DNA of 47,317 bases. Source: Minisyncoccota bacterium (lineage in GTDB: Bacteria > Patescibacteriota > Minisyncoccia > JAHIHE01 > JAGLIN01). The notes below the pieces were generated by a model. That model was not told the origin of the DNA. It made no database searches and was given only the letters and a program-made list of their open reading frames with translations. Position numbers and translations under genes: made by a program. This document shows, piece after piece, positions 11,977-27,805 of this stretch (positions within the stretch are counted from its first letter, which is position 1; each line of letters begins with the position of its first letter). The stretch covers positions 1-47,317 of the forward strand of contig JAGLOZ010000029.1 in assembly GCA_023137595.1 (NCBI GenBank), given 5' to 3'.

Positions 11977-12167
11977 TTGACAAAAACTTTATATCTGTTA
12001 TACTGTCTAGTAATAAAGTAAAAACTTTTATGGAAACTTGTAGCACTACAACTATTTACGCTGTGAAAGTGATTAGCCTCCTAATTAGGTAGCTTGTTTT
12101 TAGTCTGGTTTAAAAAAAGAAAAAACCAAATTAAAAGTAATCTACGCAATGGGTAGGCTTTTTTGTT
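11977..12167 (+). promoter_or_regulatory. candidate leader-peptide attenuator C (Thr/Ile-rich leader), a paralog of the two Phe attenuators
   Basis: Promoter: TTGACA 11977-11982, 16-nt spacer with TG, TATACT 11999-12004. The leader ORF (12030-12092) encodes METCSTTTIYAVKVISLLIR. GTAGCTTGTTTTT (12089-12101, includes the TAG stop) can pair with AAAAGTAATCTAC (12133-12145) at 12 of 13 positions, including 2 G-U pairs. A short hairpin TCTAC/GTAGG (12141-12157) is followed by T6 and then GTT (12159-12167). Confidence 0.5.
12030..12092 (+). CDS. putative 20-aa leader peptide METCSTTTIYAVKVISLLIR
   Basis: It has the same length (20 codons) and the same R-TAG ending as the two Phe leaders. It starts 26 nt downstream of a consensus -10. 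Confidence 0.4.
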   Translation: METCSTTTIYAVKVISLLIR

Positions 12168-12194
12168 AAAAAAATAAAAAATATTATCTTCTTG

Positions 12195-12335
12195 GGACAG
12201 GTTTTATTTAGAATTTTATTATAAATAGAACCTGTCCAGAGGGGACGGCGCAAATTAATAAAAGCCATTCAACGTGATGGCAGGTATAAAACAAAGTCCC
12301 GGGTTATCCCCTGGGAATGGAAACCAATATTAATT
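12195..12335 (+). ncRNA. candidate structured 5' leader or riboswitch-like element upstream of the 34-aa sORF
   Basis: A 9-bp hairpin forms between GGACAGGTT (12195-12203) and AACCTGTCC (12229-12237). It is followed by GC-enriched nested complements: GGGAC 12242-12246 with GTCCC 12296-12300, GCCAT 12264-12268 with ATGGC 12277-12281, and CCAG-A-GGG 12236-12243 with CCCCTGG 12308-12314. No known family recognised. Confidence 0.35.
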
Positions 12336-12365
12336 TGTGAAAGTTTTTAGAAAAGGAGAGAGATC

Positions 12366-12470
12366 ATGGCAAAAAAAGTTGATGTATTAAAATCAGAAAA
12401 AGAAAGTACGGATCAAAGAATTCAACTTCGGATACTTAAAGAAACTTGGAGCGGATCGCCTCCAGTATAA
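12366..12470 (+). CDS. unannotated small ORF, 34 aa (MAKKVDVLKSEKESTDQRIQLRILKETWSGSPPV)
   Basis: AGGAG lies 7 nt upstream of the ATG. A strong terminator follows 24 nt after the TAA. The ORF is below the cutoff of the ORF track. Confidence 0.4.
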   Translation: MAKKVDVLKSEKESTDQRIQLRILKETWSGSPPV

Positions 12471-12493
12471 TGAATTTAGGAAGGATATTTTAC

Positions 12494-12535
12494 AGGAAAG
12501 TTGATATTGAGTTATCACTTTCCTCTTTTTTATTT
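12494..12535 (+). terminator. rho-independent terminator
   Basis: AGGAAAGTTGAT pairs with ATCACTTTCCT (11 bp, one bulge; 12494-12524). It is followed by CTTTTTTATTTT. Confidence 0.7.
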
Positions 12536-12669
12536 TAATATTTTACAATATATTGTTTTAATTTTTTGCGTGACATAGTTGTTCTGTGTCATTATAGTTT
12601 AACGATAAGAATTTCAAAATCACCATTCTACGTTCTCTTGAGAGCGGTTTATTATTTGTAATTTTAGCA

Positions 12670-13567: not shown

Positions 13568-14134
13568 TTACATGGTTGCCGCTATAAATGTCGTGAAGTT
13601 AAATTTTAAATCCTGTATTCCCTCTTCAAGCAGGTTTAATTCATATAGCTCTGCGCATTTTTTGCAGGCGATTATACCGGTGTCTGAAGAAATTTTTCCT
13701 TCATGCAGATCTTTTGCCGCACTGGCTGTGTCGGAATATTCCTGCAGTTCCAAATTTTCCCATTTTCTTTTCAAATACATTCTGCACTGTTTGAGCGCCT
13801 GCGGATGAGAAGCTATTTTTTTTATGTCTTCTGCCTTTGTTTTTGGTTTTGCGAGCAAACAATGTCTGACATTGATTTCAAATATATTTTCTATGTTAAA
13901 AATATATTCACTCATAGCATAAATTGCTTCATAAACGATACCGCCATTTGAATTCTCAATTGGAAAGATTCCTTTATCCATCTCTCCTTTTTTCAGGGCT
14001 TTCATTGTGTTTTTGACGCTTATTAAATATTTGATTTCATAGTTCTTTATGTTGTTATTGTGGCAATAATAATTAGCGGCTTCTTCCGAAAAGCTTCCAA
14101 TATTGCCCGAAACTCCGATTACTATTTTATTCAT
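13568..14134 (-). CDS. pheA: prephenate dehydratase catalytic domain protein lacking the ACT domain
   Basis: 188 aa with PDT motifs: GNIGSFSEEAA, FPIENSNGGIV and ASHPQALKQC. It ends at NFTTF (the position of the TRF motif), so no C-terminal ACT regulatory domain is present. Confidence 0.75.
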   Translation of the reverse strand: MNKIVIGVSGNIGSFSEEAANYYCHNNNIKNYEIKYLISVKNTMKALKKGEMDKGIFPIENSNGGIVYEAIYAMSEYIFNIENIFEINVRHCLLAKPKTKAEDIKKIASHPQALKQCRMYLKRKWENLELQEYSDTASAAKDLHEGKISSDTGIIACKKCAELYELNLLEEGIQDLKFNFTTFIAATM

Positions 14135-14281
14135 ATTTAATGAGTTTAATTATTTATAGGTTTATCTTATCATAAAATTAAAAAAGAGTCATTACTTTAA
14201 ACTCTGAATTCGAAAGGTAACTTCTAACTGTCATTGCGATGACAGTGAGGAGTTAATTCAAAAAGCTCCGAAAACCTTCTC

Positions 14282-14455
14282 TTGACATAATTATTCTTTT
14301 TGCTATACTAATATTATTGAAATAAAATATCTTATGAAATACACAAAAAACAATCAATTTTTCTTTTATAGCTTTTTTAGCCGTCACAAGCGATAGGTTG
14401 TTGTTATAGCTTGATTTTTCCAAAGAACAATCCATCGCAAAGATGGTTTTTTGTT
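14282..14455 (+). promoter_or_regulatory. Phe/Tyr leader-peptide transcription attenuator A in front of the aro operon
   Basis: Promoter: TTGACA 14282-14287, 16-nt spacer with TG, TATACT 14304-14309. The leader ORF is 14334-14396. GCGATAGGTTGTT (14390-14402, contains the TAG stop) is complementary to AACAATCCATCGC (14426-14438) at 12 of 13 positions, including one G-U. The hairpin CCATC-GCAAA-GATGG (14432-14446) is followed by T6 (14447-14452). The aroDEK ATG is at 14493. Confidence 0.75.
14334..14396 (+). CDS. leader peptide MKYTKNNQFFFYSFFSRHKR
   Basis: 20 codons. Five Phe and one Tyr codon fall within 8 consecutive codons (14358-14381). The ORF shares 54 of 63 nt with the second leader at 23728-23790. 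Confidence 0.7.
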   Translation: MKYTKNNQFFFYSFFSRHKR

Positions 14456-14492
14456 ATTTAAATTTAATTTTTATCAGTAATTTATATTATTT

Positions 14493-16388
14493 ATGTTATG
14501 TGGATGTGTTGGAGAAAAAAAGATTAATAATTGTCTAAATCAAATCATTAAAGCCGAGAATAACGGTGCGAAAATTATTGAATTGCGTCTTGATTATTTG
14601 GAACATAAAAATGATTTAAAGCAGATAATTTTATCTTCCAATTTGCCTGTTATCTGCACTAACAGAAATAGCGATCAAAGAATTTTGATTGAGGCGATAG
14701 ATGCCGGCGCAAAATATATTGATATGGATATTAATGAGATTGAATATGATGTTTTGAAATATGCCAGAAAAAAGGGATGTAGGATTATTCTTTCTTATCA
14801 TAATTATAAGGAAACTCCCTCATTAAAGGCAATACTTGCTATAGCAAAAAAATTTCAAAAAGATGCAGATATGATAAAGATAGTAACGACTGCAAGATCA
14901 CAAAAAAACAATGGCATTATTCTGTCGCTTTATGGCGCGATAGAATATCCTCTTATCGCTTTTAGCATGGGCGTGATCGGACAGCAAACTCGAATTGATT
15001 GTTTGGCGCATGGAGCATTGTGGACATATTGTAGTATTGGCCGCAAAAAAATAGCTTCTGGACAAATGAGCTTGGGTGAAATGGCAAAAGAAAAAATATA
15101 TTGTGTGATCGGAAGTCCGATCAGACACTCAATGAGTCCGGTTATGCATAATAAAAATTTCAAATCATTAGGTCTAAATGCAAATTATAGCGCAGTACAA
15201 GTCAGCAACCTTAGCCAATGGATGAAAACCGTTCAAAAAAGAGATATTCACGGGATCAATGTTACAATGCCTTACAAGACAGAAGTGATGAAATATTTAG
15301 ATGAGATTGATCCTTTGGCAGAGAAAATAGGCGCTGTAAATACGATTCATAATAGAAACGGAAAATTGATTGGTTATAACACAGACGCGTTTGGTGCTTT
15401 GCAGGCTATAAAAGAAAAGACAAAAAAATTGAAAAACAGAAAGGTGATAATATTAGGTTCAGGAGGAGCTGCCAGAGCGATCTCGTTTATTCTTGAAAGA
15501 GAAAAAACAGATGTAGTTATTATTTCCAGAAACATAAAAAAAGCAAAAGAAATTGGAAAAGCGTTGAAATATAATAATAAAAACATCAAAGAACAATTAC
15601 AGGAGGCGGATATTTTGATCAATTGTACTCCAATTGGAATGAATTCCAACGAAACTCCAGTGCCAAAAGAGAGTTTGAATAAAAATCTAGTTGTGTTTGA
15701 TATAGTTTATACTCCCATCAAAACAAAGCTCATCAGAGATGCCGAAGAGAAAGGATGCGAGACAATCTTGGGATATAAAATGCTTGCCTTTCAAGGAGCG
15801 CAGTCATTTCAAATTTGGACAGGAAAAAAGCCCAATGTTTCAATTATGCTTGATGCTGTCAAAAAACAACTTTTACCAAGTATAGTCTTGACGGGATTTA
15901 TGGGTTCTGGAAAAACAAGTGTGGGAAAAATATTAGCAAAAGATCTTGGACGAGAATTTATTGATATTGATGAGGAGATAGAAAAAAAGGAAAAAATGTC
16001 AATTAAAAATATTTTTAGAAATCACGGCGAAAAGCATTTTAGAAAATTGGAGAATGAAATTCTCAGAGATGTCGCGTCAAGAAAGAATGTAGTAATTTCC
16101 TGTGGCGGTGGAATTGTTCTTGAGGATAAAAACAGGCAAAGATTAAAATCTTTTATTACTGTTAATTTAAAGGCGGAACCAAGAACTATTGCTCAAAGAT
16201 TATCAAAGGATAAAAGCAGACCGTTATTATTCGGACTAAGCAACAAGGATAAAATAAAAAAAATATCTAGAATATTGAAAGAAAGAGAGAATTTATATAA
16301 AATTACGGCAGATTATTCCGTCAAGACAGACGGTCTCAGCAAAAAAGAAAGTGAAAAAGAAATTATGAGATCAATAATTAAAATTTAA
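14493..16388 (+). CDS. aroDEK: trifunctional 3-dehydroquinate dehydratase (type I) / shikimate dehydrogenase / shikimate kinase fusion
   Basis: 631 aa. The AroD-I part has ELRLDYL, SYHNYKETP and MIKIV. The AroE part has GSPIRHSMSPVMHN, NVTMPYK, NTD and GSGGAARA. The AroK part has the Walker A motif GFMGSGKTSVGK and SCGGGIV. Confidence 0.9.
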   Translation: MLCGCVGEKKINNCLNQIIKAENNGAKIIELRLDYLEHKNDLKQIILSSNLPVICTNRNSDQRILIEAIDAGAKYIDMDINEIEYDVLKYARKKGCRIILSYHNYKETPSLKAILAIAKKFQKDADMIKIVTTARSQKNNGIILSLYGAIEYPLIAFSMGVIGQQTRIDCLAHGALWTYCSIGRKKIASGQMSLGEMAKEKIYCVIGSPIRHSMSPVMHNKNFKSLGLNANYSAVQVSNLSQWMKTVQKRDIHGINVTMPYKTEVMKYLDEIDPLAEKIGAVNTIHNRNGKLIGYNTDAFGALQAIKEKTKKLKNRKVIILGSGGAARAISFILEREKTDVVIISRNIKKAKEIGKALKYNNKNIKEQLQEADILINCTPIGMNSNETPVPKESLNKNLVVFDIVYTPIKTKLIRDAEEKGCETILGYKMLAFQGAQSFQIWTGKKPNVSIMLDAVKKQLLPSIVLTGFMGSGKTSVGKILAKDLGREFIDIDEEIEKKEKMSIKNIFRNHGEKHFRKLENEILRDVASRKNVVISCGGGIVLEDKNRQRLKSFITVNLKAEPRTIAQRLSKDKSRPLLFGLSNKDKIKKISRILKERENLYKITADYSVKTDGLSKKESEKEIMRSIIKI

Positions 16389-16392
16389 TGGT

Positions 16393-16665
16393 ATGGAATT
16401 AAAAGAAATAAGAATAAAATTAGACAAAATAGATAACGACTTGGTTGAAATTGTCGCCAAAAGAATTGAATTAATTCCAGAAGTTGCTGAGTATAAGAAG
16501 GAACATAATCTTGAAAGGTATCAAAAAGGAAGAGAAGACCAAATTATTACAGAATTAAGAAAAAAGGCTTGTGAATTGAATGTTAATCCTGATCTAATAG
16601 AAGATCTGATAAAAAGGATCATTGAAGAATCTCATAGAATTGAAAAAGAAATTATGAAAAAATAA
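16393..16665 (+). CDS. chorismate mutase, AroQ class
   Basis: 90 aa, all-helical. The pattern LKEIRIKLDKIDNDLVEIVAKRIEL...RE matches CM type 2. Confidence 0.8.
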   Translation: MELKEIRIKLDKIDNDLVEIVAKRIELIPEVAEYKKEHNLERYQKGREDQIITELRKKACELNVNPDLIEDLIKRIIEESHRIEKEIMKK

Positions 16666-16829
16666 TTAAATTAGGAATTGCGTATTTGGCGTTTACAGAA
16701 GTTCAGTTTCTCCGTATTTGGTCGTGATTTACAATTTAAATGTTATATACAAGGCAGTACTTAAAATTAAATTGAATGTGTAGAGGTTGAATCTCTTATA
16801 TCTCTTAAGTTCTATAAATAATAAATTAT

Positions 16830-19196
16830 ATGTCTGAGGTCAAATTAATTTTAAACAAATGTGTTCTTGGGAGCGAATCGGTGAAAATTCCTTCATCAAA
16901 AAGTTTTACGCATAGAGCTATAGTTTGCGCCGCTTTGTCATCCGGCATTTCTAGGATTGAGAACCCTTTAATATGTGAAGATATTTTAGCAACGATAGAA
17001 GCGTGCAGATCTTTTGGAGCGAAAATAGAATTAAAAGGAAATGTGATTGAAATTGAAGGTATCGGTAATAATTGGAAGAAACAAAAGTCTAGCGTAAAAA
17101 TAAATTGCCGAGAATCCGGTTCGACAATGAGATTTATAATACCACTTTGCAGTGTTTTGTGTGAATCATCTGAGATTACTGGCAAAATAGGGCTTTTGAA
17201 TAGGCCGATCTATCCAATAATAGATGCGTTAAAACAATTAAATATAAACATAAAAGCAAACGGAAAATATCCACCTGTTCATATAAGAAAAGGAAAACCG
17301 AAAGCTTCTGTAATTCACATTGCCGGAAATATAAGTTCACAATATATTTCAGGGCTCTTGTTCTCTTTGCCATTGTTAGATGGTGATAGCACTTTGATTA
17401 TTACAACTGATTTGCAGTCAAAAGATTATGTTTTGATGACTATTGATGTATTAAAAAGGTTTGGCATTGAAATAATTACATCAAGCGATCTAAGAAAATT
17501 TACGATTAGAGGAAATCAGAACTATAAAGCTGTTAAATGTTATGCCGTGGAAGGGGATTATTCCGCAAGCGCTTTTTGGTTTGTTGCCGGGATTTTTGCT
17601 GCTAGAAGTAAGATAATCATCAAAGGGCTAAGACATTCTTCTCTTCAGGGAGACGCGCAAATTTTAGATATATTAAAAAAAATGGGCGCAGATATTAACT
17701 TTCAAAATGGTAATTTCATTGTCAAAAAAAATCGTTTGAAAGCAATTGAAATTGACGCGAAGAACATTCCTGATCTGGTGCCGATTCTTGCTGTTGCAGG
17801 GACTCAGGCTTATGGAAAAACAATCATAAAGAATATTGAGCGCATCAGAATCAAAGAATCTGATCGAGCAAAAGCAATTACAAGCCAGTTGAAAAAAATG
17901 GGCGCAGTAATTGTTGAAAAAAATAATTCACTGGAAATAAAAGGGCCGACAAAGCTTGTTGGATCGGAAATTGATACTTTTAATGATCATAGAATTGCTA
18001 TGTCAATAGCCGTTGCTTCTCTTGTGACCGAAGGAGAAACAGTCATCAATGATCCAATTTGCATAAAAAAATCATATCCGAATTATTTTGATGATCTAAG
18101 AAAATTAGGCGTAAATGTTGTTCCGATAACTTCAGAGTTTGGAAAAATCGTAAAGATGACGATCTATGGGGATTCTCATGGCAAAAAAGTGGGTGTATGT
18201 CTTGAGGGAATACCAGCTGGAATTCAAATATCAAGAGCTCAAATACAAGAAGAAGTTGATAAGCGCAAAAGCATTAGCTCACTGACTACTCCAAGAAGGG
18301 AAACAGATGCAGTAAAAATTGTTCAAGGAATAAGAAATAATCTGACCACGGGAGAAAAAATTAATTTGGAGATATTAAACAAGAATGTTAATTCTCATTC
18401 TTATGAGCTGATAAAAAACACGCCTCGACCAGGTCATGCGGATCTTGCTGTCAGGACAAAATATGCCAGTGTTTTTGATTATCGCGGAGGAGGTTTTGCT
18501 TCCGGCAGGATGACCGTGTGTATGGTTGCGGCTGGTTCAATTGCAAAGAAAATATTAGTTAATAATGGAATAAAAATCATTGCGTTCACAAAACAAGTCG
18601 GCAATGTGAAGATGAGCAAAAACCCAAGCTTTAAAGATTTAGAAAAAAATACTTATAAAAATTTGGCAAGGTGTCCTGACAATAAAGTCGCGTTAAAAAT
18701 GATAAAAAAAATTGAAGAAACAAAAAAGAAGAATGATTCAATCGGGGGCATTGTGGAGTGTATGATCATTGGCTTGCCTGTTGGACTCGGAGAGCCCTTA
18801 TTTAATTCTATGGAAAGTGTTCTTTCTCAAGCAATGTTTTCAATTCCTGCGATTAAAGCGGTAGAGTTTGGTTCTGGTTTCAAATCTGTTACTATGAGCG
18901 GAAGCAAACATAATGATAGTTTTCATTTTGATGAAAATGATAATATAATTTCTTCGTCAAATAATGCGGGAGGAATTTTAGGCGGGATAACGACCGGGAT
19001 GCCTATTATTTTCAGAATAGCGGTTAAGCCGACTGCTTCTATCGGTTCTGTGCAAAATACGGTTAGTTTTGAAACTTGCAGAGATGCTAAAATTACGGTT
19101 GGCGGAAGGCACGACCCTTGTATTGTCATTCGAGTTCCTCCAGTAGCTGAAGCGATGGCGTCAATTTCAATTCTTGATCTGTTGTATCGAGCATAA
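16830..19196 (+). CDS. aroAC: bifunctional EPSP synthase / chorismate synthase fusion
   Basis: 788 aa. The N-terminal ~430 aa are EPSPS (PSSKSFTHRAIVCAALS, ESGSTMRF, DHRIAMS). The C-terminal ~350 aa are chorismate synthase (YGDSHGKKVGV, RPGHADL, GGRHDPC). Confidence 0.9.
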   Translation: MSEVKLILNKCVLGSESVKIPSSKSFTHRAIVCAALSSGISRIENPLICEDILATIEACRSFGAKIELKGNVIEIEGIGNNWKKQKSSVKINCRESGSTMRFIIPLCSVLCESSEITGKIGLLNRPIYPIIDALKQLNINIKANGKYPPVHIRKGKPKASVIHIAGNISSQYISGLLFSLPLLDGDSTLIITTDLQSKDYVLMTIDVLKRFGIEIITSSDLRKFTIRGNQNYKAVKCYAVEGDYSASAFWFVAGIFAARSKIIIKGLRHSSLQGDAQILDILKKMGADINFQNGNFIVKKNRLKAIEIDAKNIPDLVPILAVAGTQAYGKTIIKNIERIRIKESDRAKAITSQLKKMGAVIVEKNNSLEIKGPTKLVGSEIDTFNDHRIAMSIAVASLVTEGETVINDPICIKKSYPNYFDDLRKLGVNVVPITSEFGKIVKMTIYGDSHGKKVGVCLEGIPAGIQISRAQIQEEVDKRKSISSLTTPRRETDAVKIVQGIRNNLTTGEKINLEILNKNVNSHSYELIKNTPRPGHADLAVRTKYASVFDYRGGGFASGRMTVCMVAAGSIAKKILVNNGIKIIAFTKQVGNVKMSKNPSFKDLEKNTYKNLARCPDNKVALKMIKKIEETKKKNDSIGGIVECMIIGLPVGLGEPLFNSMESVLSQAMFSIPAIKAVEFGSGFKSVTMSGSKHNDSFHFDENDNIISSSNNAGGILGGITTGMPIIFRIAVKPTASIGSVQNTVSFETCRDAKITVGGRHDPCIVIRVPPVAEAMASISILDLLYRA

Positions 19197-19223
19197 TTTA
19201 TTAAATAAAATAACCAAAAAAAT

Positions 19224-19985
19224 ATGAATAAAGAAAAGGAAATTCTACTGGCAAAAATCATTGATCCAGAGAAAAATCGCGTTGTAATTCTGCCAATGGA
19301 TCATGGTGTGAGCGAAGGTCCGATTGACGGACTGATAAATATGAAGGAAACAATTTTAAAGGTTAAGCAAGGAGGAGTTGACGCTATTGTGATTCATAAA
19401 GGAATTTATAAAAAATACAAAGAGGTGATTGGAGATTTACCGGCGCTAATTCATCTTTCTGCTTCGACAAAAATAGGAAATGTTTTAAAAAAAGTTCTGA
19501 TAGCAACAGTCCAAGAAATCAAAGAATTAGGAGCGCAAGGCGCGTCAATTCATGTAAACCTTGGCAATAAATATGAAGAAGATATGCTCAAAGATCTTGG
19601 AGTTGTTTCGCGAGAGTGCGAGAGAATCGGACTGCCGCTGCTTGCAATGATGTACCCAAGAGACGAAGAAAATGGAAGAATAATTTCATATACGGATTCA
19701 GAAAGAGTTAAACTTGCAGCCAGAGTGGCCTTTGAGTTGGGTGCTGATATTGTTAAGGTTCCATATACAGGCAGCGCGGAAAGTTTTCAGGAGGTTTGCC
19801 AAGGCGTTGATATTCCGGTTGTAATTGCTGGTGGGGCCAAGGGCAATGAAAAAGAAATGCTAAAGTCTATTAAGGATTGTGTAATGGTTGGCGCGGCTGG
19901 AGTTTCTATCGGACGCAATGCTTTTCAAGCTGATGATATACCCAGGACAATTGGAAAAATAAGAAGCGTTGTATATGATAACTAG
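19224..19985 (+). CDS. aroA': 2-amino-3,7-dideoxy-D-threo-hept-6-ulosonate (ADH) synthase, archaeal-type (class I aldolase DhnA/FbaB family)
   Basis: 253 aa. The sequences ILPMDHGVSEGPI, IHVNLG, LLAMMYPR, ADIVKVPYTG and AAGVSIGRNAFQ closely recall MJ0400-type proteins. The gene sits directly upstream of DHQ synthase II. Confidence 0.7.
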   Translation: MNKEKEILLAKIIDPEKNRVVILPMDHGVSEGPIDGLINMKETILKVKQGGVDAIVIHKGIYKKYKEVIGDLPALIHLSASTKIGNVLKKVLIATVQEIKELGAQGASIHVNLGNKYEEDMLKDLGVVSRECERIGLPLLAMMYPRDEENGRIISYTDSERVKLAARVAFELGADIVKVPYTGSAESFQEVCQGVDIPVVIAGGAKGNEKEMLKSIKDCVMVGAAGVSIGRNAFQADDIPRTIGKIRSVVYDN

Positions 19986-20013
19986 TTTTTAATTAAAAAA
20001 TAAAAATAATTTC

Positions 20014-21021
20014 ATGAAAAAGTTTTGGTATAAAATATTAAATTGGGATAAAAGATTAGTTTCAGCTGCAATTGAAAGCGGATTTGATTCTATCTATGTA
20101 TCGTCCGATGATGTCAAAAAAGTCAGAGAACTCTCCAGAATAGGAGTTATTTCAAACAACAAAGAGGCTGATCTAGTTTTAGATAAAGACGTTAAAGAGA
20201 TTATTATCAAGTCAAAGGAATCAGAAAAAGATATTGTTAATTTAAATGGAAAAATTCCTGTTATTATAAAAAATAAAGATTGGACTATAATTCCTCTTGA
20301 AAATTTGATTTCCAAAACGACTAATTTAATTCAGTATGTAGAAAATTACAAAGAGGCGAAGGTTGCTCTTGAAACGATGGAAAAAGGCGCTGACGGCATT
20401 GTCCTTGAGACAAATGATATGAATGAGATTAAAAAAGTTGGGAATCTGATCAGAGAGATCCAGAACGAGAAATTATCTTTGACAGAAGTTGAGATAGACA
20501 GAATCAAACAAGTTGGAATCGGTGATCGTGTTGTTGTTGACACTTCAAGCATTTTGAAACCGGGACAAGGGATATTGGCGGGAGACTCATCCTCTGCGAT
20601 GTTTTTAGTATATAATGAAAATGTTCAAACTCCTTATTGCGATCCTCGTCCTTTTAGGGTTAATGCGGGAGGAGTTCATGCTTATGTTCAGATAGCAGGA
20701 GATAAAACAAAATATTTAGGAGAGCTGGCAAGCGGATCAAAAATAATGGTTGTTGATCAAAACGGAAATACGCAAGAAGCTATTATTGGACGAGTTAAAA
20801 TTGAAAAGAGACCAATGCTGGCAGTATATGCTCATTATCATAATAAAAAGATGAGTTTGATAATGCAGAATGCAGAAACGATTCGGTTAACGAAAAAAGA
20901 TGGAAGTCCTATTTCCGTTACAAAATTGAAAAAGGGAGATAGGGTTTTAGCAAATCTTGAGCAAGATGGGGTTGGTAGGCATTTCGGTCAAAAAATTAAA
21001 GAAACTATTTTAGAAAAATAA
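20014..21021 (+). CDS. aroB': 3-dehydroquinate synthase II (archaeal-type)
   Basis: 335 aa with N-terminal FWYKI..WDKRLVSAAIESGFDSIYV and C-terminal GRVKIEKRPMLAVYA, as in the DHQS type II family (MJ1249-like). Confidence 0.75.
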   Translation: MKKFWYKILNWDKRLVSAAIESGFDSIYVSSDDVKKVRELSRIGVISNNKEADLVLDKDVKEIIIKSKESEKDIVNLNGKIPVIIKNKDWTIIPLENLISKTTNLIQYVENYKEAKVALETMEKGADGIVLETNDMNEIKKVGNLIREIQNEKLSLTEVEIDRIKQVGIGDRVVVDTSSILKPGQGILAGDSSSAMFLVYNENVQTPYCDPRPFRVNAGGVHAYVQIAGDKTKYLGELASGSKIMVVDQNGNTQEAIIGRVKIEKRPMLAVYAHYHNKKMSLIMQNAETIRLTKKDGSPISVTKLKKGDRVLANLEQDGVGRHFGQKIKETILEK

Positions 21022-21025
21022 TAAA

Positions 21026-22417
21026 ATGGAAAAAAGAAGATCAAAAATAATAGTAAATAAATTTGGCGGTGGAATTCTAACTTCAAGATATATTCTTGTT
21101 GCCAAAAAACGGATTGAACAGCAAATAGAAAAAGGCTATAGCCCGATTGTTGTAGTTTCAGCGCTAAACGGAGTGACAGACGATCTAGTTGAATTCTTTT
21201 CTGAGCTTAATAATGTAAATCTGCGAAGAAGAAAAGAAAATAGAAATGAAAACAGACATATCGAGAATTTAATTGATTTGTTCATTAAGGATATCAGAAA
21301 AAAGCATATCTTAATGATGCGAAGAGTGAAAATAAGCGAAGAAGATCAAGACAAGATAATGCTTTCTTTTGATCAAGTATTTCAGGAAATGAAAGATGAT
21401 TTTGCTGCTAGCACTCGTTTTGGAGGTTTGGATATGGTTCAAGATAAAATTCTTTCATATGGAGAGCGACTAAGCGCTTTGTTTTTCTGTGTATTTTTGA
21501 ATGTAAATGACATCAAAGCTAAAATATTTCTAGCAGAGGATATTCCAATTACAACGGATAACGTTCATTTGAATGCAAATATTAATTATAATGAAGCATC
21601 AAGAAATACTAGAAAAACATTAAAGTCTATGAATGCGATACCTATTATAAACGGATTTACCGGAAGGGATAAGGATGGAAATATTACAACCTTGGGAAGG
21701 GGTGGAACAGACACAACAGCGTGTTTTGTCGGAGCGGCGCTAAAAGCAGATAGGGTTGTCTTGTGGAAAGATACAAAGGGAGTATTATCCGCAGATCCGC
21801 GGATCATTCAAAATGCTAAAACAATCGCTTATCTCAGCTATGAAGAAGCAGTTGAATCTGGAAAGATCGTCCACGACAAAGCCATTTCTTATGTGAAAGA
21901 CTCTAAGACCCCTTTGGAAATTGTTTCTATATCTGATACAAAAAAATATACTTTGGTTGGACCCCAAAGCAAAGAAGATGTCGGCGCTAAAATTATTGGC
22001 TTCAAAAAAGAATTAATGCTTATGGTTATAACCGATGATAGGGTGAGCGAATATGGATTTCTTTTTGGTGTTGCAAAAATTTTGAGTTTCCATAAAATTA
22101 ATATGGTTTTAATTCGCAATACTCGCGACAGTCTTCATGTTGTAGTTGAAAATGATAATGTCAATCTAGAGAAGGCGTTAGAGGAATTGAAAAGGAAAAA
22201 ATATTTAATTTGTTGTTGGCCTGTTTGTATGATAACTTTAATCGGCAGTTTGAATTGGAAAATGGTTAATATTTTCAATGATGTGCTTTTAGAAAATTGT
22301 TCAAATCCTCAATTAGGCGCTTTTCCTTATAAACATTGCGTTCGACTGGAAGCTGTCGTAAAAAGTACAGAAATGAAAAAAGTTATGCGCGAACTTCACA
22401 AGAAGTTTATTAATTGA
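21026..22417 (+). CDS. aspartate kinase
   Basis: 463 aa with VNKFGGGIL, VVVSALNGVTDDL and GRGGTDTTA, and a C-terminal ACT-like region. It starts 4 nt after the aroB' stop. Confidence 0.8.
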   Translation: MEKRRSKIIVNKFGGGILTSRYILVAKKRIEQQIEKGYSPIVVVSALNGVTDDLVEFFSELNNVNLRRRKENRNENRHIENLIDLFIKDIRKKHILMMRRVKISEEDQDKIMLSFDQVFQEMKDDFAASTRFGGLDMVQDKILSYGERLSALFFCVFLNVNDIKAKIFLAEDIPITTDNVHLNANINYNEASRNTRKTLKSMNAIPIINGFTGRDKDGNITTLGRGGTDTTACFVGAALKADRVVLWKDTKGVLSADPRIIQNAKTIAYLSYEEAVESGKIVHDKAISYVKDSKTPLEIVSISDTKKYTLVGPQSKEDVGAKIIGFKKELMLMVITDDRVSEYGFLFGVAKILSFHKINMVLIRNTRDSLHVVVENDNVNLEKALEELKRKKYLICCWPVCMITLIGSLNWKMVNIFNDVLLENCSNPQLGAFPYKHCVRLEAVVKSTEMKKVMRELHKKFIN

Positions 22418-22511
22418 GATTTTGCTTTGAGATATACTAATATTTTAAAGCATGGAAATAAAAATATGTATTTTAAAACCTAATATATTAATAAAATAAT
22501 TAAGTTAGATT

Positions 22512-23597
22512 ATGAAAAAATATAAAGTAGGAATTTTAGGGGCAACTGGCATGGTCGGTCAAAATTATATTAAATTATTAGAAGATCATCCTTGGTTTGA
22601 TATTTCTTATCTGGCAGCTTCTCCCAGGACTGCGGGAGAAAAATATGGCAGAGAGATGAAAGACAAATGGCAAATGGATGTTGCTATGCCAGAGAATGTG
22701 CTTAATATAGTCCTTGAAGATGTTGGTAATGTTGAAAAAATCAAAGGAAAATGTGACCTTGTTTTTTCTTCGTTTGGGATGAATAGTGATGAAAAGATCA
22801 GAGATTGTGAAAATAAATATGCAAAATTTGGCCTGCCGGTTGTCTCTAGCTCTTCTGCCAACAGGCATACAAAAGATGTGCCGATGATCGTTCCGGAAGT
22901 GAATTCCGGACATTTAGAAATGATTAAAATTCAGAAAAAAAATCACTTATGGGATAAAGGATTTATTGTCACTAAGCCAAATTGCAGCTTACAAAGTTAT
23001 ATTATTCCGGTGTATGCGCTAATGAAAGCCGGTTATGAAGTCAAGAAAATGATAGTTACGACTTTGCAAGCAGTCTCCGGAGGGGGGTATCCCGGCATAG
23101 CAAGTTTAGATATGATTGATAATGTTGTTCCTTATATCGGAGGAGAAGAAGAAAAGAGTGAAACAGAACCATTAAAAGTACTAGGAAAAATTGAAAATGG
23201 AAATTATAAAAATTTTGATGATTTGAAAATTTCAGCGCACTGTAATCGAGTTCCCGTAGCAGATGGTCATTTAGCATGCGTGAGTATGCTTTTTGGAAAA
23301 AATAAACCAAACAAAAGCGAGATTATAAATATTTGGAGAGATTTTAGACCAGATATTCAAGGATTAAATTTACCGTTTGCTCCGAGTCCTACTATCATAT
23401 ATAAAGAAGAAGAGAATAGACCTCAACCCAAAAAGGATCGCCAAGAAGGAAATGGCATGGCGATTACGATTGGAAGATTGAGAGAGTGTAATGTTTTTGA
23501 TCATAAATTTACTTGTTTAAGCCACAACACTATCAGAGGAGCAGCAGGCGGCGGAATTTTGCTTGCAGAACTTTTAGCAAAAAAAAGGTTGATTTAG
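22512..23597 (+). CDS. asd: aspartate-semialdehyde dehydrogenase (archaeal/fungal-type branch)
   Basis: 361 aa with KVGILGATGMVGQ (Rossmann), the active-site motif KPNCSLQ, and RVPVADGHLACV. Confidence 0.85.
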   Translation: MKKYKVGILGATGMVGQNYIKLLEDHPWFDISYLAASPRTAGEKYGREMKDKWQMDVAMPENVLNIVLEDVGNVEKIKGKCDLVFSSFGMNSDEKIRDCENKYAKFGLPVVSSSSANRHTKDVPMIVPEVNSGHLEMIKIQKKNHLWDKGFIVTKPNCSLQSYIIPVYALMKAGYEVKKMIVTTLQAVSGGGYPGIASLDMIDNVVPYIGGEEEKSETEPLKVLGKIENGNYKNFDDLKISAHCNRVPVADGHLACVSMLFGKNKPNKSEIINIWRDFRPDIQGLNLPFAPSPTIIYKEEENRPQPKKDRQEGNGMAITIGRLRECNVFDHKFTCLSHNTIRGAAGGGILLAELLAKKRLI

Positions 23598-23666
23598 TGG
23601 GACAGAATTAATTTATTTATCAGAATTTACAAAGCCGTAAATGCAGAAAAAAACGGAAACATATGG

Positions 23667-23849
23667 TTGACATATATTATCTATATGCTATTATTGTTTT
23701 TAGATAAAGAATCAGTTCAATATAATTATGAATCATACAAAGAATAATCAATTTTTCTTTTTTAGCTTTTTTAGCCGTCATCTGCGATAGGTTGTTTTTT
23801 CAGCATAATTTTCTCAAAAAACAATCCATCGCAAAGATGGTTTTTTGTT
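23667..23849 (+). promoter_or_regulatory. Phe leader-peptide transcription attenuator B (paralog of A)
   Basis: Promoter: TTGACA 23667-23672, 16-nt spacer with TG, TATTAT 23689-23694. The leader ORF is 23728-23790. GCGATAGGTTGTTTTTT (23784-23800) is complementary to AAAAAACAATCCATCGC (23816-23832). The hairpin CCATC-GCAAA-GATGG (23826-23840) is followed by T6. The 30 nt at 23820-23849 are identical to 14426-14455. Confidence 0.75.
23728..23790 (+). CDS. leader peptide MNHTKNNQFFFFSFFSRHLR
   Basis: 20 codons, with six Phe codons within seven consecutive codons (23752-23772). The TAG stop lies inside the antiterminator strand. Confidence 0.7.
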   Translation: MNHTKNNQFFFFSFFSRHLR

Positions 23850-24013
23850 TGTTTAAAGGCGCTTGTAATTGCAATAATAAGAATGGAATTTACCCTTTAG
23901 GGTTTCAAAAATCACTGAAATTCTGGAGGGTGGATTTAAGAAATCACCTAAAACAAAAAGATTCTTTGAACCGATAACGGCGGAATTAAAACTAAAGTAA
24001 AAGAGGCAGAAAT

Positions 24014-24151
24014 ATGAATGAAATAAAAGATGAAATTGAAGTGAGGGATCCCATTCTTAAAATTGCCGACAAAGTGCATCAAGGAATGGAAAAAGGAAGA
24101 GAGTTGGACAAAAGACGTAATTCTTTTGCAGGGCGTCAGAATGGATTCTGA
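24014..24151 (+). CDS. unannotated small ORF, 45 aa (MNEIKDEIEVRDPILKIADKVHQGMEKGRELDKRRNSFAGRQNGF)
   Basis: AGAGG lies 7 nt upstream of the ATG. It is the first ORF downstream of attenuator B. The terminator hairpin overlaps its stop codon. It is below the ORF-track cutoff. Confidence 0.4.
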   Translation: MNEIKDEIEVRDPILKIADKVHQGMEKGRELDKRRNSFAGRQNGF

Positions 24152-24166
24152 TGCCCTTTATTTATT
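24131..24166 (+). terminator. rho-independent terminator
   Basis: GGGCGTCAGAA (24131-24141) pairs with TTCTGATGCCC (24146-24156), 11 bp including one G-U, with loop TGGA. It is followed by TTTATTTATT. Confidence 0.65.
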
Positions 24167-24241
24167 ATTAAAGGTTTTTGTCATTTGATATTGTATAGCT
24201 CTGGATGCCCGGTGTCTTTGGAGACACGGGGTGTCTATAGG

Positions 24242-24281
24242 AGAAGAGAGTCAAAAACGATGACTCTCTTCTTTTCTATTT
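24242..24281 (+). terminator. second plus-strand terminator-like hairpin
   Basis: GAAGAGAGTCA (24243-24253) pairs perfectly with TGACTCTCTTC (24261-24271) over 11 bp. It is followed by TTTTCTATTT. There is no T run in the minus orientation. Confidence 0.5.
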
Positions 24282-24293
24282 AGAATCTTATTT

Positions 24294-24860
24294 CTATTTT
24301 TCCACTGCCAAAAAATTTGTGAAATTAAACTTCAAGTCTTGTATTCCTTTTTCCATAACAATAAGACCATATAAAGTAGCGCAGCTTTCAGGGGCGAGGA
24401 CGGCAGTGTCCTTGGAAAGATTTCCCTCTGAGAGGTCTTTTGCTGATTTCGCGGTATCTTCAGTCTCATGCAGGCCAGTTTCTCCCCAGTTTCTCTTAAG
24501 ATAAGTTTTGCATTGCTTGAGCGCCTGATCATGAGAGGCTATGTTCTTTATATCTTCTTTTTCAATTCCTGGTTTTGTTAGCAAGCAATGAACCACGGGA
24601 ATTTCAAAAATTTCTTTTATTTTGAATGTATGCCTTGAGATCGCATAAACACTTTCAATAACAACACCGCCGTTTGAGTTTTCAATTGGAAAGATGCCCA
24701 AGTCAATTTCTTTTTTGTCAATTTCAGTGAGGACTTTTTCTACGGAAATAAGGCATTTAATTTCATAGTTTTTGATGCCATTTTTTCTAGCGTGTTCATT
24801 TGCGGCTTGTTCCGAAAAACTGCCGATATCGCCAGAAACGCCGATTTTTATTTTTTTCAT
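24294..24860 (-). CDS. pheA: prephenate dehydratase catalytic domain paralog lacking the ACT domain
   Basis: 188 aa, the same length as the 13568-14134 product and roughly 60 percent identical by eye (GDIGSFSEQAA, FPIENSNGGVV, ASHDQALKQC, NFTNF). Confidence 0.75.
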   Translation of the reverse strand: MKKIKIGVSGDIGSFSEQAANEHARKNGIKNYEIKCLISVEKVLTEIDKKEIDLGIFPIENSNGGVVIESVYAISRHTFKIKEIFEIPVVHCLLTKPGIEKEDIKNIASHDQALKQCKTYLKRNWGETGLHETEDTAKSAKDLSEGNLSKDTAVLAPESCATLYGLIVMEKGIQDLKFNFTNFLAVEK

Positions 24861-24886
24861 AGAGTTAGTTTATATTAATTTATTTT

Positions 24887-24972
24887 GTAGAAACGCGATT
24901 TATCTAGTTTAGATGCGGTATAAATTTTTGTTAAATTAAAACATCTTTAGACGCGATAAATCACGCCTCTAC
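24887..24972. repeat. inverted repeat between topA and pheA2
   Basis: GTAGAAACGCGATTTATC (24887-24904) and GATAAATCACGCCTCTAC (24955-24972) are complementary at 14 of 18 positions. Confidence 0.6.
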
Positions 24973-25073
24973 TATATGTTGGTAATAGCTGTCTGGATAG
25001 GTACTGTGGAACTTTCAAGAGTGGTTGGGGTGAATAGTCTTGGATGAAACCTCTTAAAACAGAACAGAAAACA

Positions 25074-27305
25074 TCATTTACATTCCTTGCTTGAACAAGT
25101 CACGCTGTCGTTTTTTGCGTAAACCATCAGGCTATCGCATTTTGAGCACTTTTCTCCAGTCGGTTTACTCCAGAGCGCATGTTTGCAGGACGGATATTGA
25201 TTACAGGCATAAAAAATTTTGCCTGCCTTTGATTTTTTTTCAACGATCTCTCCTTTGTCGCACTCTGGACATTGGACACCGGTAGATTTTACTATTGATT
25301 TTATATTTTTACAGTCAGGATAACCGGAACAGCCGAGAAATTTTCCATAACGGCCGATTTTAAATGTCATCGGCTTTCCGCATTTTTCGCAAACTTCATT
25401 GGTGGTTTCTGGTTCTTCTATTTCTCCCTTGTCATTCAGCTGTTTTGTGTTTTTGCAGTCTGGGTAATTACTGCAGGCCATAAATTTTCCAAATCTGCCA
25501 AGTTTGATAATCATCGGCGATTTACACTTTTCACATTTTTCGTTTGTTTTTTCTTCAGTAAGCTCTTTTTTGTCTATTTCTTTTTCTTTTTCCATTAAAT
25601 TTTTGTTAAACGGTTTATAAAAATCATTTAATATTATAACCCAGTCTTTTTTATTTTCTGCTACTTTATCCAAGTCTTCTTCCATTTTTGCGGTAAACTT
25701 AACATCTACAATTTTGGGAAAGTGTTCAACCAAAAGCTTATTTACTATAACGCCAATTTCTTGCGGATGAAGTCTTTTTTCAATTTTCTCAATGTAGCCT
25801 CTATCCTGAATCGTGCTAATGGTTGGAGCATAGGTTGAAGGTCGTCCAATTCCAAGTTCTTCAAGAACTTTAATTAAACTTGCTTCGTTAAATCTGGCAG
25901 GAGGTTGAGTAAAATGTTGTTCGCTTATAATTTTTATAAGGCCTAATTTTTCTTTTTCTGTCAGTTCTGGCAAGACGATTTCTTCTGATTTCATCGGATG
26001 TACCTTTAAAAATCCTTCAAATTTTATCGTTGAACCGTTCGCTCGTAATGTATATTTGTCGCCTGCGAGAATATCAATGCTGGTTGAATCTACAATAGCG
26101 CTTGCCATTTGAGATGCTACCATTCTTTGCCAAATCAGTTCATATAATTTGAATTGTTTGCTGTCTAAAAATTCTTTAATACTTTCCGCATCAAGTTCCG
26201 GGTTTGTCGGACGAATGGCTTCATGCGCTTCTTGCGCTCCTTTGCTTTTTGTTTTGAAAAATCTTCTTTCGGAATATTCTTTGCCAAATTTAGCTTTGAT
26301 ATATTTATCAGCCGATTCAAGAGAGCTTTTACTCAGGCTCAAAGAGTCGGTTCTCATATAGGTTATCAAACCGCTTGAACCTTTTTGACCGAGGCTAATT
26401 CCCTCATAAAGTTGCTGAGCGATCATCATCGTTTGTTTGGCGCTATAACCGAATTTATTGCTGGAAGCTTGTTGTAAAGTGCTGGTCGTAAAAGGCGGCA
26501 GGGGGTTTTTCTTAGTTTCCTTTTTGGTTATTTTTTCAATTTCATAATTTGCTTTTTCAAGATCTTGTTTGATTTTTTCTGCTTCATCTTGATTTTTTAC
26601 GCCAAGTTTTCCAATTGACTTGCTATCAACCTTAACTAGCCTTGCTTCGAAACTTTCTTGTGATTTATCTGTAATTTTTTTTAGTTCTGCTGTGATATTC
26701 CAATATTCCTCTGGTTTGAATTTATTAATTTCTTCCTCTTTCTCAACAATGAGACGAACTGCCACAGATTGAACTCGTCCCGCCGAAAGTCCGTAGCGGA
26801 TTTTTTTCCAGAGAAGAGGGGATAGTTTGTATCCGACAAGACGATCTAAAATTCTTCTGGCTTGTTGAGCGTCAACTAAATTCATATCTATATCACGGGG
26901 ATTTTTCAAAGCTTCTTTAATGGCTGATTTTGTGATTTCATGAAAAACTATTCTTTTGTATTTTTTTTCTGATTTTCCATTTCCGAATCCTTTCAAATTT
27001 AATAATTGAGCCAAATGCCATGAAATTGCTTCCCCTTCACGGTCTTCATCAGACGCCAGGATAATTTCATCACATTCTTTCGCCTGTTTTTTCAGTTCCG
27101 TAGCCTGTTTTTTGCTTTTTGGGTTGATAACATATTCCGGCTCAAAATCATTTTCCGTATCAACCCCCAACTTACTTTTTGGCAGATCGCGAAGATGTCC
27201 AAAAGAAGATTTGACAATATATTCTTTTCCTAAAAATTTGGAAATAGTTTTCGCTTTTGTGGGAGATTCTACGATGATTAGTTTTTTGGTTTTTAGGGTT
27301 GACAT
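25074..27305 (-). CDS. topA: DNA topoisomerase I
   Basis: 743 aa with a TOPRIM domain (LIIVESPTKAKTISKFLG, SDEDREGEAISWH), the catalytic region YMRTDS, and four C-terminal CxxC...CxxC zinc-ribbon repeats. Confidence 0.95.
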   Translation of the reverse strand: MSTLKTKKLIIVESPTKAKTISKFLGKEYIVKSSFGHLRDLPKSKLGVDTENDFEPEYVINPKSKKQATELKKQAKECDEIILASDEDREGEAISWHLAQLLNLKGFGNGKSEKKYKRIVFHEITKSAIKEALKNPRDIDMNLVDAQQARRILDRLVGYKLSPLLWKKIRYGLSAGRVQSVAVRLIVEKEEEINKFKPEEYWNITAELKKITDKSQESFEARLVKVDSKSIGKLGVKNQDEAEKIKQDLEKANYEIEKITKKETKKNPLPPFTTSTLQQASSNKFGYSAKQTMMIAQQLYEGISLGQKGSSGLITYMRTDSLSLSKSSLESADKYIKAKFGKEYSERRFFKTKSKGAQEAHEAIRPTNPELDAESIKEFLDSKQFKLYELIWQRMVASQMASAIVDSTSIDILAGDKYTLRANGSTIKFEGFLKVHPMKSEEIVLPELTEKEKLGLIKIISEQHFTQPPARFNEASLIKVLEELGIGRPSTYAPTISTIQDRGYIEKIEKRLHPQEIGVIVNKLLVEHFPKIVDVKFTAKMEEDLDKVAENKKDWVIILNDFYKPFNKNLMEKEKEIDKKELTEEKTNEKCEKCKSPMIIKLGRFGKFMACSNYPDCKNTKQLNDKGEIEEPETTNEVCEKCGKPMTFKIGRYGKFLGCSGYPDCKNIKSIVKSTGVQCPECDKGEIVEKKSKAGKIFYACNQYPSCKHALWSKPTGEKCSKCDSLMVYAKNDSVTCSSKECK

Positions 27306-27400: not shown

Positions 27401-27805
27401 ATGAGTAAATTATCAGTTGTCGTATTACTGTTATTGGCTGTGACAGTAGGAGGGTGCGTAGAAGAAGAGCCTATTGTATATGATATGAACGATGAACTAC
27501 AAGATTTGTTTGAAAAAGCGATAAAGGAGAACGCTAATACAAGTTCAAATCTTTTTGAAACGAAAAATAAGGTCATCGGTTACAACAATTTTTTTGTTGT
27601 TGGAGTAATAGAGAAAGATGGAGTAAAATGTTTAGAAGAGGAAGCTTTTTCTTCAGAGCCTGTTTATTCCATCACTTTCGTTGATGGAAAGGTTTGGATG
27701 GTTAACAACGAACCATTTAAATATGATACAAATTCTCCAACTGGATTATATATTTATAAGAGTGTTGTATTTGAAACTTTTAAAATAAAGAAAATTATCA
27801 CATAG
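27401..27805 (+). CDS. putative lipoprotein
   Basis: 134 aa. GGAGG lies 8 nt upstream of the ATG. The signal peptide has a lipobox-like LAVTVGGC. Confidence 0.55.
   Translation: MSKLSVVVLLLLAVTVGGCVEEEPIVYDMNDELQDLFEKAIKENANTSSNLFETKNKVIGYNNFFVVGVIEKDGVKCLEEEAFSSEPVYSITFVDGKVWMVNNEPFKYDTNSPTGLYIYKSVVFETFKIKKIIT

Follow-up and report, generated by a model that had tools for sequence, protein, structure and literature searches.

A probable phenylalanine-sensing leader-peptide attenuator ahead of a shikimate operon with archaeal-type entry in a Patescibacteria contig

The closest described systems are the phenylalanine leaders of Escherichia coli, where the leader of pheA is pheL (Rfam family Phe_leader, RF01859) and that of pheST is pheM. 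A 1:2 protector or pause hairpin also occurs in the classical leaders of trp, phe and his in E. coli; it is typical of the class without strictly defining it. Bacteria of the candidate phyla radiation (CPR), or Patescibacteria, are usually pictured as reduced episymbionts with little amino acid biosynthesis and few known cis-regulatory RNAs. The Leu/phe leader RF01743 of Lactococcus lactis is in the list of Weinberg et al. 2010 (PMC2864571), and Naville and Gautheret 2010 (PMC2965389), according to whom only Proteobacteria and Actinobacteria were known at the time to have leader peptides, added the His leaders of Firmicutes, which in Bacilli precede hisS/hisZ paralogues; the CPR was not covered. 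Here we describe an element in front of an aromatic amino acid operon on 47,317 nucleotides (nt) of contig JAGLOZ010000029.1 from a Minisyncoccota bacterium, the whole of which is referred to as the window. The operon begins with an aroD-aroE-aroK fusion gene (aroDEK), and from sequence comparison and computed folds we consider it probable that the element is a classical ribosome-mediated leader-peptide transcription attenuator which senses the charging of tRNA-Phe and, to a lesser extent, of tRNA-Tyr. An earlier sequence-only reading of the window had proposed this and knew of no such description for a CPR-like genome. Our full-text literature search for leader peptide together with attenuation or attenuator and Patescibacteria or candidate phyla radiation likewise found no paper, and the attenuator is apparently new for the phylum.

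The element, here called copy 1 (W1), is composed of the following parts.

14282..14309, plus strand: promoter of leader copy 1, with a -35 TTGACA at 14282-87, a 16-nt spacer and an extended -10 TGcTATACT at 14301-09
14334..14396, plus strand: leader open reading frame (ORF) 1, 20 codons and a TAG at 14394-14396, predicted peptide MKYTKNNQFFFYSFFSRHKR
14390..14405, plus strand: segment 2 (antiterminator 5' arm), made up of GCGAUAGGUUGUU (14390-14402) and a weak extension, holding the stop at 14394-96
14423..14438, plus strand: segment 3 (antiterminator 3' arm), containing AACAAUCCAUCGC (14426-14438) and overlapping the terminator 5' arm CCAUC at 14432-36
14432..14452, plus strand: intrinsic terminator (3:4), CCAUC (14432-36)-gcaaa-GAUGG (14442-46)-U6 (14447-52), matched in the terminator scan

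The TG of the extended -10 is at 14301-02 and its TATACT at 14304-14309, which gives the promoter a score of 11/12 plus TG. Nine sites in the whole 47-kb window score at least 11/12 (six on the plus and three on the minus strand), including the promoter of a second copy of the cassette, and the promoters of these two copies are the two best matches within 14000-25100. Transcription of copy 1 would start at about 14316-14318, ~17 nt 5' of the leader ORF. In the stretch FFFYSFFS (14358-14381) five Phe and one Tyr occupy eight codons, while Phe accounts for ~4.5% genome-wide; the regulatory codons are those of FFFYSFF (14358-14378). Segments GCGAUAGGUUGUU and AACAAUCCAUCGC pair at 12 of 13 positions (11 Watson-Crick pairs and one G-U), with a mismatch between A14395 and C14433. 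The terminator stem alone is worth -5.5 kcal/mol, or -9.1 kcal/mol with an A/U extension, and its T tract is separated by 40 nt from the aroDEK ATG (14493). The sequence-only reading had named each of these parts: the TTGACA/16 nt/TATACT promoter, the 20-codon ORF with its five Phe and one Tyr over eight positions, the TAG inside a segment complementary to 14426-14438 at 12 of 13 positions with one G-U, and the CCAUC/GAUGG hairpin with U6 at 14432-14452, 40 nt before aroDEK. All of them were recovered here, the promoter as an 11/12 match and the hairpin by the terminator scan.

There is no Shine-Dalgarno sequence before leader ORF 1, but since only 3 of 39 genes in the window have a Shine-Dalgarno-like motif, a leader without one is normal here. 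Clear GGAGG-type motifs precede small or uncharacterised ORFs, at 27401 and 29457 and in front of the 34-aa and 45-aa ORFs described below. We rejected a minus-strand ORF of 60 aa (14253-14435) as a gene: being Lys-rich, it is simply the Phe run read from the complementary strand, and its counterpart in copy 2 differs in length.

A second, near-identical cassette, copy 2 (W2), occupies 23667-23846, directly 3' of the last operon gene (asd, which ends at 23597).

23667..23694, plus strand: promoter of leader copy 2, TTGACA, 16 nt, TGcTATTAT; 11/12 with TG
23728..23790, plus strand: leader ORF 2, predicted peptide MNHTKNNQFFFFSFFSRHLR, with TAG 23788-90 inside segment 2
23784-23800, plus strand: segment 2 of copy 2, GCGAUAGGUUGUUUUUU
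23816-23832, plus strand: segment 3 of copy 2, AAAAAACAAUCCAUCGC
23826-23840 with U6 at 23841-46, plus strand: terminator of copy 2, CCAUC/GAUGG, matched in the terminator scan

The two copies show 83% mean column identity over ~230 aligned nt, and divergence starts just after the U tract of the terminator. Homologous leaders also precede aroDEK in two relatives, L087 and L082, whose AroDEK proteins are 56-60% identical to that of the window (L083 is the same sequence as L082). Using nhmmer we found exactly four homologous copies (W1, W2, L087 and L082) with E-values of 1e-29 to 1e-33, and when 750 kb of fetched loci were searched with a profile of these four leaders, no additional copy came to light. 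In L087 the leader peptide is MSMNYTNNQFYFFSFYSQKN, and CUGAUAGGUUAUUUGCGU, which follows, pairs with ACGUAAGCGGCCUAUCAG; its terminator, at 386-409 with a U run behind it and matched in the terminator scan, ends ~25 nt before aroDEK. The L082 peptide is MIISNRSPKNNNFFFFFTPSHDRLFVRIS, containing KNNNFFFFF, its antiterminator pairs UGACAGG-U-UGUU..UGCGUA with UACGCA-AACA-UC-CCUGUCA, and its terminator, a ACAUCCCU/AGGGCUGU hairpin with a U run, was found through folding only. An IS66-family transposase (200-1633) lies just upstream of the L082 leader. A fifth element, in L089 (273..100, minus strand; L089rc), is an analogous, non-homologous Phe/Tyr leader, MNLIKINNTISLNVWENFFFSFFVFYYFFIFIT, with a 33-codon ORF containing NFFFSFFVFYYFFIF. 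Its promoter is TTGACA-16-TAAGAT, its stop is inside UUGAGGC, which pairs with the terminator GCCUCGA, and its terminator (140-117, minus strand, a terminator scan match) ends in U7. This leader stands directly before a divergent ADH-synthase-like gene, not aroDEK.

The 2:3 and 3:4 structures are mutually exclusive, and the unconstrained minimum free energy (MFE) structure of 14316-14460 has the 2:3 helix. In copy 1 the 2:3 state has -13.6 kcal/mol compared with -5.5 kcal/mol for the terminator stem, and the ordering is the same in the other copies. We modelled ribosome masking with a 28-nt footprint (A site -15 to +12) placed on one codon after another, and calculated how probable the terminator stem was in each case. 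In all five elements this probability was at most 0.07 with the A site on or before the main Phe/Tyr run, whereas one to three codons past the run it was 0.79-0.98 in W1, L087, L082 and L089rc and 0.71-0.99 in W2, most values being ~0.9 or higher. Two elements flipped earlier, L087 as soon as the A site stood on its last two aromatic codons (F15 and Y16) and L089rc on its last Phe (F31). Since the terminator appears once the A site leaves the run, this is the behaviour needed of a Phe-sensing attenuator. The 2:3 versus 3:4 geometry that had been proposed therefore exists as two exclusive alternatives by both MFE and masked folding, and in copy 1 a ribosome at the stop would mask segment 2 and a stalled one would leave it free, as the sequence-only reading had suggested.

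From these folds we infer the following mechanism, in which the leader ORF would be translated in coupling with transcription. When Phe-tRNA is plentiful, the ribosome would pass FFFYSFF, reach the UAG in segment 2 and occlude that segment; segments 3 and 4 (CCAUC/GAUGG with U6) would then pair and RNA polymerase would stop at the U tract, 40 nt short of aroDEK. Under a shortage of Phe-tRNA, the ribosome would stall on the Phe/Tyr run with its footprint ending before segment 2, leaving segment 2 free for the far more stable pairing with segment 3, so that the terminator would be blocked and polymerase would read through into the operon. Charged tRNA-Phe would be sensed mainly, and tRNA-Tyr to a lesser extent. 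Read-through would express the shikimate genes, chorismate mutase and the aspartate-semialdehyde genes, which would feed an archaeal-type route to dehydroquinate.

Phe-rich short ORFs are abundant in this AT-rich DNA (33% GC), so that a Phe-rich ORF alone proves nothing. Their abundance, together with a terminator stem of 5 bp, would suit an explanation by which a T-rich ORF and a hairpin were paired by chance in AT-rich intergenic DNA. Conservation effectively refutes this explanation and we give it almost no credence: there are four homologous copies at the E-values given above, the two cassettes have the two best promoter matches in 11 kb, and in each of the five elements the energy of the 2:3 duplex was equalled or beaten by only 0-4 of 2000 shuffles, copy 1 beating all 2000. 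The antiterminator core also covaries, as far as the proposed covariation check goes. Compensatory double changes (G-C/C-G, C-G/U-A and U-A/C-G) affect three of the eight pairs of the 8-bp core in the three-lineage alignment, and core helix cells are paired in 95.7% of cases versus at most 43.5% with the partner slid by 1-3 columns, although values as high were obtained in 22 of 500 shuffles. The terminator stems of the window are shifted by ~3 nt with respect to those of L087 and L082, and their 5' arm is always drawn from segment 3. It is thus the overlap rather than the sequence that is conserved, and because these stems are out of register only the antiterminator core was tested for covariation.

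The Phe/Tyr run is kept in W2, L087, L082 and L089rc. Within the run, codons of the homologous leaders differ synonymously (TTT/TTC, AGC/AGT) or by exchange of Phe and Tyr. The run is preceded by an indel whose length is divisible by three, which preserves the frame. Peptide tails after the run vary (SRHKR, SRHLR, SQKN and TPSHDRLFVRIS), and the reading frame of L082 differs too; the RNA motif GAYAGGUUGUU is kept although the peptide tail is not. This pattern of a retained run, a drifting tail and frame, and a retained RNA motif points to a regulatory ORF and speaks against a functional micropeptide, and it would be the signature of a leader whose only conserved "product" is the position of the ribosome.

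A terminator/antiterminator switch is by itself no proof of translation, and the same architecture would be expected if the short ORF were untranslated and the 2:3/3:4 switch were worked in trans, for example through binding of a protein, of uncharged tRNA or of a small molecule to the RNA. The missing Shine-Dalgarno sequence, the unconserved peptide tail and the tendency of T-rich runs to yield Phe codons in more than one frame would all be compatible with this. We nevertheless regard it as very unlikely, because an ATG opens the frame with the aromatic run in all five elements, the stop lies within segment 2 in four of the five (W1, W2, L087 and L089rc), the indel and the codon changes described above respect the frame, and Shine-Dalgarno motifs are scarce genome-wide. 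Nor is an aptamer evident, the spacer between segments 2 and 3 being A-rich, variable in length (~13 to 50 nt) and without a conserved fold. No riboswitch, T-box or known leader family was found when the whole window was compared with Rfam at gathering score, or the two leader regions at permissive thresholds, sub-threshold hits being noise, and the T-box model RF00230 gave no hit to either copy at the gathering threshold or at E <= 10.

It could also be argued that the cassette is an independent small unit, a micropeptide gene or small RNA, with aroDEK transcribed from a separate, unrecognised promoter and the adjacency incidental. Copy 2 comes after the operon with only a small ORF behind it, the cassette of L082 is 360 nt distant from aroDEK, and a third cassette of the window (11977-12165) likewise precedes only a small ORF. 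On the other hand, no promoter-like site is seen between the U tract and aroDEK, either in the 40 nt of the window or in the ~25 nt of L087, and a helix 2:3 that overlaps the terminator is kept with compensatory changes, which a plain terminator would not need. Moreover, the peptide is conserved just in its N-terminal part and the Phe/Tyr run, and the link with aromatic-pathway genes recurs in three other contigs. We judge such independence to be highly improbable.

Several points weigh against a Phe-sensing attenuator and temper our confidence in it. The masking simulation is a heuristic that supposes equilibrium and takes the footprint as given, the terminators of the window are short and weak (5 bp; -5.5 kcal/mol in copy 1), and without translation three of the four homologous copies are predicted to allow read-through. 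We found no significant 1:2 pause or protector hairpin, the 1:2 duplexes being no better than shuffles (221 to 1677 of 2000) and a 1:2-like helix being present in the MFE structure of L087 only, which would leave ribosome and polymerase without an evident means of synchronisation. The proposed likeness to E. coli leaders thus stands for the 2:3/3:4 switch and fails for the 1:2 pairing. In L082 the leader stop is beyond segment 2, ~19 nt past the GACAGG core, and a ribosome parked there frees the 5' part of segment 2; to this must be added the 360 nt between that cassette and aroDEK, and the fact that the gene behind copy 2 is a 45-aa ORF and no biosynthetic gene. The covariation statistics are weak, because only three independent lineages and one paralogue carry the homologous element. 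Finally, the search for Phe-run ORFs upstream of aroD/aroE homologues that the sequence-only reading had proposed succeeded in L087 and L082, in addition to the copy on the same contig, while about ten other aroDEK relatives, 54-64% identical over the N-terminal AroD domain, are without a leader (L001/L081, L002, L003, L084/L085, L088, L090, L093, L095 and L096). In these aroDEK adjoins the upstream gene or comes after an AT-rich spacer, and the leader is confined to the subclade ordered aroDEK, chorismate mutase, aroAC. A scan of genome contigs by AroDEK alignment gave three close relatives only, none with a leader, a scan of metagenome contigs by AroD-domain alignment gave just two distant matches, and a search with the N-terminal fragment gave two extra close relatives, L095 and L096 (a short contig), both leaderless.

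Two of these relatives deserve separate mention. The closest AroD-domain relative (64%), at L095 3363-4124, is a 253-aa remnant in which AroD runs into the C-terminal end of shikimate dehydrogenase; the remnant is found in a non-aro context with a GC-rich structured element upstream, and looks like a decayed gene. The 360-nt spacer of L082 (1915-2273), from terminator to aroDEK, contains a short ORF with a Shine-Dalgarno sequence, and BLASTP detected no similarity that would make it a homologous small ORF.

The genes behind copy 1, with products assigned by Pfam, are as follows.

14493..23597, plus strand: putative regulated operon
14493-16388, plus strand: aroD-aroE-aroK fusion (aroDEK)
16393-16665, plus strand: chorismate mutase CM_2
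16830-19196, plus strand: aroA-aroC fusion
19224-19985, plus strand: DeoC-family ADH-synthase-like aldolase
20014-21021, plus strand: dehydroquinate synthase II
21026-22417, plus strand: aspartate kinase
22512-23597, plus strand: aspartate-semialdehyde dehydrogenase (asd)

The DeoC-family aldolase and dehydroquinate synthase II together constitute the archaeal ADH route to dehydroquinate, and aspartate kinase and aspartate-semialdehyde dehydrogenase supply the precursor of this route. Tight gene spacing and the absence of internal terminators suggest that the whole 9-kb operon would be under leader control. Our terminator scan of 14000-25100 gave a single plus-strand match inside the operon, a marginal one of 6 bp (21463-21480) within the aspartate kinase ORF; with eight matches on both strands compared with a shuffle mean of 5.7, this marginal match is within the number given by shuffles. 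Genes for prephenate dehydratase and prephenate dehydrogenase (Pfam) are transcribed divergently from the aro operon. Sensing of Phe and Tyr fits the pathway, since the operon makes chorismate and prephenate and these two genes are divergent from it.

Prephenate dehydratase is encoded by two paralogues, at 13568-14134 and 24294-24860 (both minus strand), of 188 aa each and 61% identical; both consist of the catalytic PDT domain alone, without the ACT regulatory domain, and no Phe leader was seen upstream of either gene. In the divergent region that the operon shares with the prephenate dehydratase/dehydrogenase genes there is a perfect inverted repeat, ACTGTCAT-TGCG-ATGACAGT at 14227-14246 (with an imperfect extension to 14218-14255), 35 nt upstream of the aro -35. 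It may be an operator for a DNA-binding regulator.

The window contains bacterial markers (Lgt, DprA, bacterial TopA, Pth, LepB and LytR-CpsA-Psr), and its HisRS shares 74-92% identity with proteins whose names give Patescibacteria or Candidatus Pacebacteria/Paceibacterota. These HisRS relatives support assignment of the contig to the CPR/Patescibacteria (Pacebacteria), in agreement with the CPR-like genome suspected from sequence alone. The aroD-E-K fusion is common to DPANN-type archaeal contigs; in our comparison, which took in the loci L086, L001, L004, L011 and L094, the neighbours in L086 are archaeal ribosomal and exosome genes. There are many HisRS relatives at 74-92% identity, yet the closest AroDEK relatives reach only 60-64%, a contrast that suggests horizontal transfer and a patchy distribution. 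Because some carriers of the aroDEK fusion are archaeal, we consider the operon to be patchy in its distribution and to move, probably, by horizontal transfer between DPANN and CPR.

Copy 2 is likely to act on the small ORF behind it.

24014-24151, plus strand: 45-aa ORF MNEIKDEIEVRDPILKIADKVHQGMEKGRELDKRRNSFAGRQNGF, with a Shine-Dalgarno-like AGAGG ahead and a 12-bp hairpin terminator at 24130-24157

This ORF has no Pfam family match, and among 1.84 billion representatives it has one homologue, P0241, which is encoded on a 553-nt ENA contig. As the homologue is 78% identical with an in-frame 4-aa indel, the ORF is probably a real small protein, and it would have been placed under Phe control. 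It is encoded beside one of the two ACT-less prephenate dehydratase paralogues. The 440-nt stretch after copy 2 (23850-24290) that contains the ORF is highly structured (MFE -135.9 kcal/mol, z = -7.7), matches no Rfam family, and the region downstream of copy 2 shows no similarity to any fetched locus. The stretch includes a ~21-bp hairpin with G-U pairs (~23878-23945), a second hairpin that is GC-rich (~24205-24232) and, at ~24240-24275, a bidirectional terminator that it has in common with the convergent prephenate dehydratase gene.

A third cassette of the same layout was observed at 11977-12545. It has a TTGACA-16-TGtTATACT promoter and a Thr-rich ORF of 20 codons (12030-12092, METCSTTTIYAVKVISLLIR), the 3' end of which falls in the 5' arm of a long, T6-ended hairpin. 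Downstream are a highly structured spacer (z = -5.75), a 34-aa ORF (12366-12470) preceded by a strong Shine-Dalgarno sequence, and finally a terminator. This cassette may represent a further small-protein gene controlled by an attenuator. One could imagine that the Phe attenuator is the cis element of a small Phe-responsive regulon, that its duplicated cassette drives the 45-aa protein as a trans-acting regulator of aromatic metabolism reporting tRNA-Phe charging, and that the layout recurs in Patescibacteria. We consider this extension unlikely and offer it as speculation; if true, a layout in which a promoter is followed by a short-ORF attenuator, then by a structured spacer and last by a small ORF that has a Shine-Dalgarno sequence (also at 11977-12530) would be a recurrent, undescribed form of gene control in Patescibacteria.

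If the element is indeed a Phe-sensing attenuator, at least one Pacebacteria-like lineage would make its own Phe and Tyr via an archaeal-type shikimate entry, and would tune this pathway through tRNA charging. It would also imply working transcription-translation coupling, and efficient initiation on a 20-codon ORF without a Shine-Dalgarno sequence, in an uncultivated phylum. What goes beyond the routine is the predicted control of a small protein by a duplicated copy and the archaeal-type pathway that would be governed. The cassette, at ~170 nt, is compact and suited to heterologous assays.

In comparison with E. coli pheL and pheM, the element shares a short ORF in which Phe codons, with some for Tyr, form a run, a stop beside or inside segment 2, an exclusive choice between a 2:3 antiterminator and a 3:4 terminator, and Phe-related genes downstream; as in those leaders, tRNA-Phe charging would be read via ribosome position. 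It differs in having neither a significant 1:2 hairpin nor a Shine-Dalgarno sequence, and in its host, a Patescibacteria/CPR bacterium. The targets here would extend beyond a pheA-like gene to the whole common shikimate pathway with its archaeal-type entry, chorismate mutase and the aspartate-semialdehyde genes. The Rfam Phe_leader model (RF01859), whose gathering score is 55 bits, gave only 15.2 bits for copy 1 (E = 8.8) and did not hit copy 2 at E <= 10; the element therefore falls outside the pheL/pheM sequence families, with no sequence or structure homology to them, and would work as they do. With RF01743 of Lactococcus lactis, it has in common that it is a candidate Phe-codon leader-peptide attenuator outside the Proteobacteria, although the phylum and the regulated genes are different and the RF01743 model gave no hit at E <= 10 in 14100-14600 or 23600-24300. 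Like the His leaders of Bacilli and the actinobacterial leaders, it would represent attenuation outside the Proteobacteria of apparently independent origin, and it was found by the same comparative logic of a short ORF with cognate codons combined with a premature terminator; unlike them, it would sense a different amino acid, and it belongs to a different phylum. If our interpretation is correct, the range of leader-peptide attenuation would be widened beyond the Proteobacteria, Actinobacteria and Firmicutes (PMC2965389).

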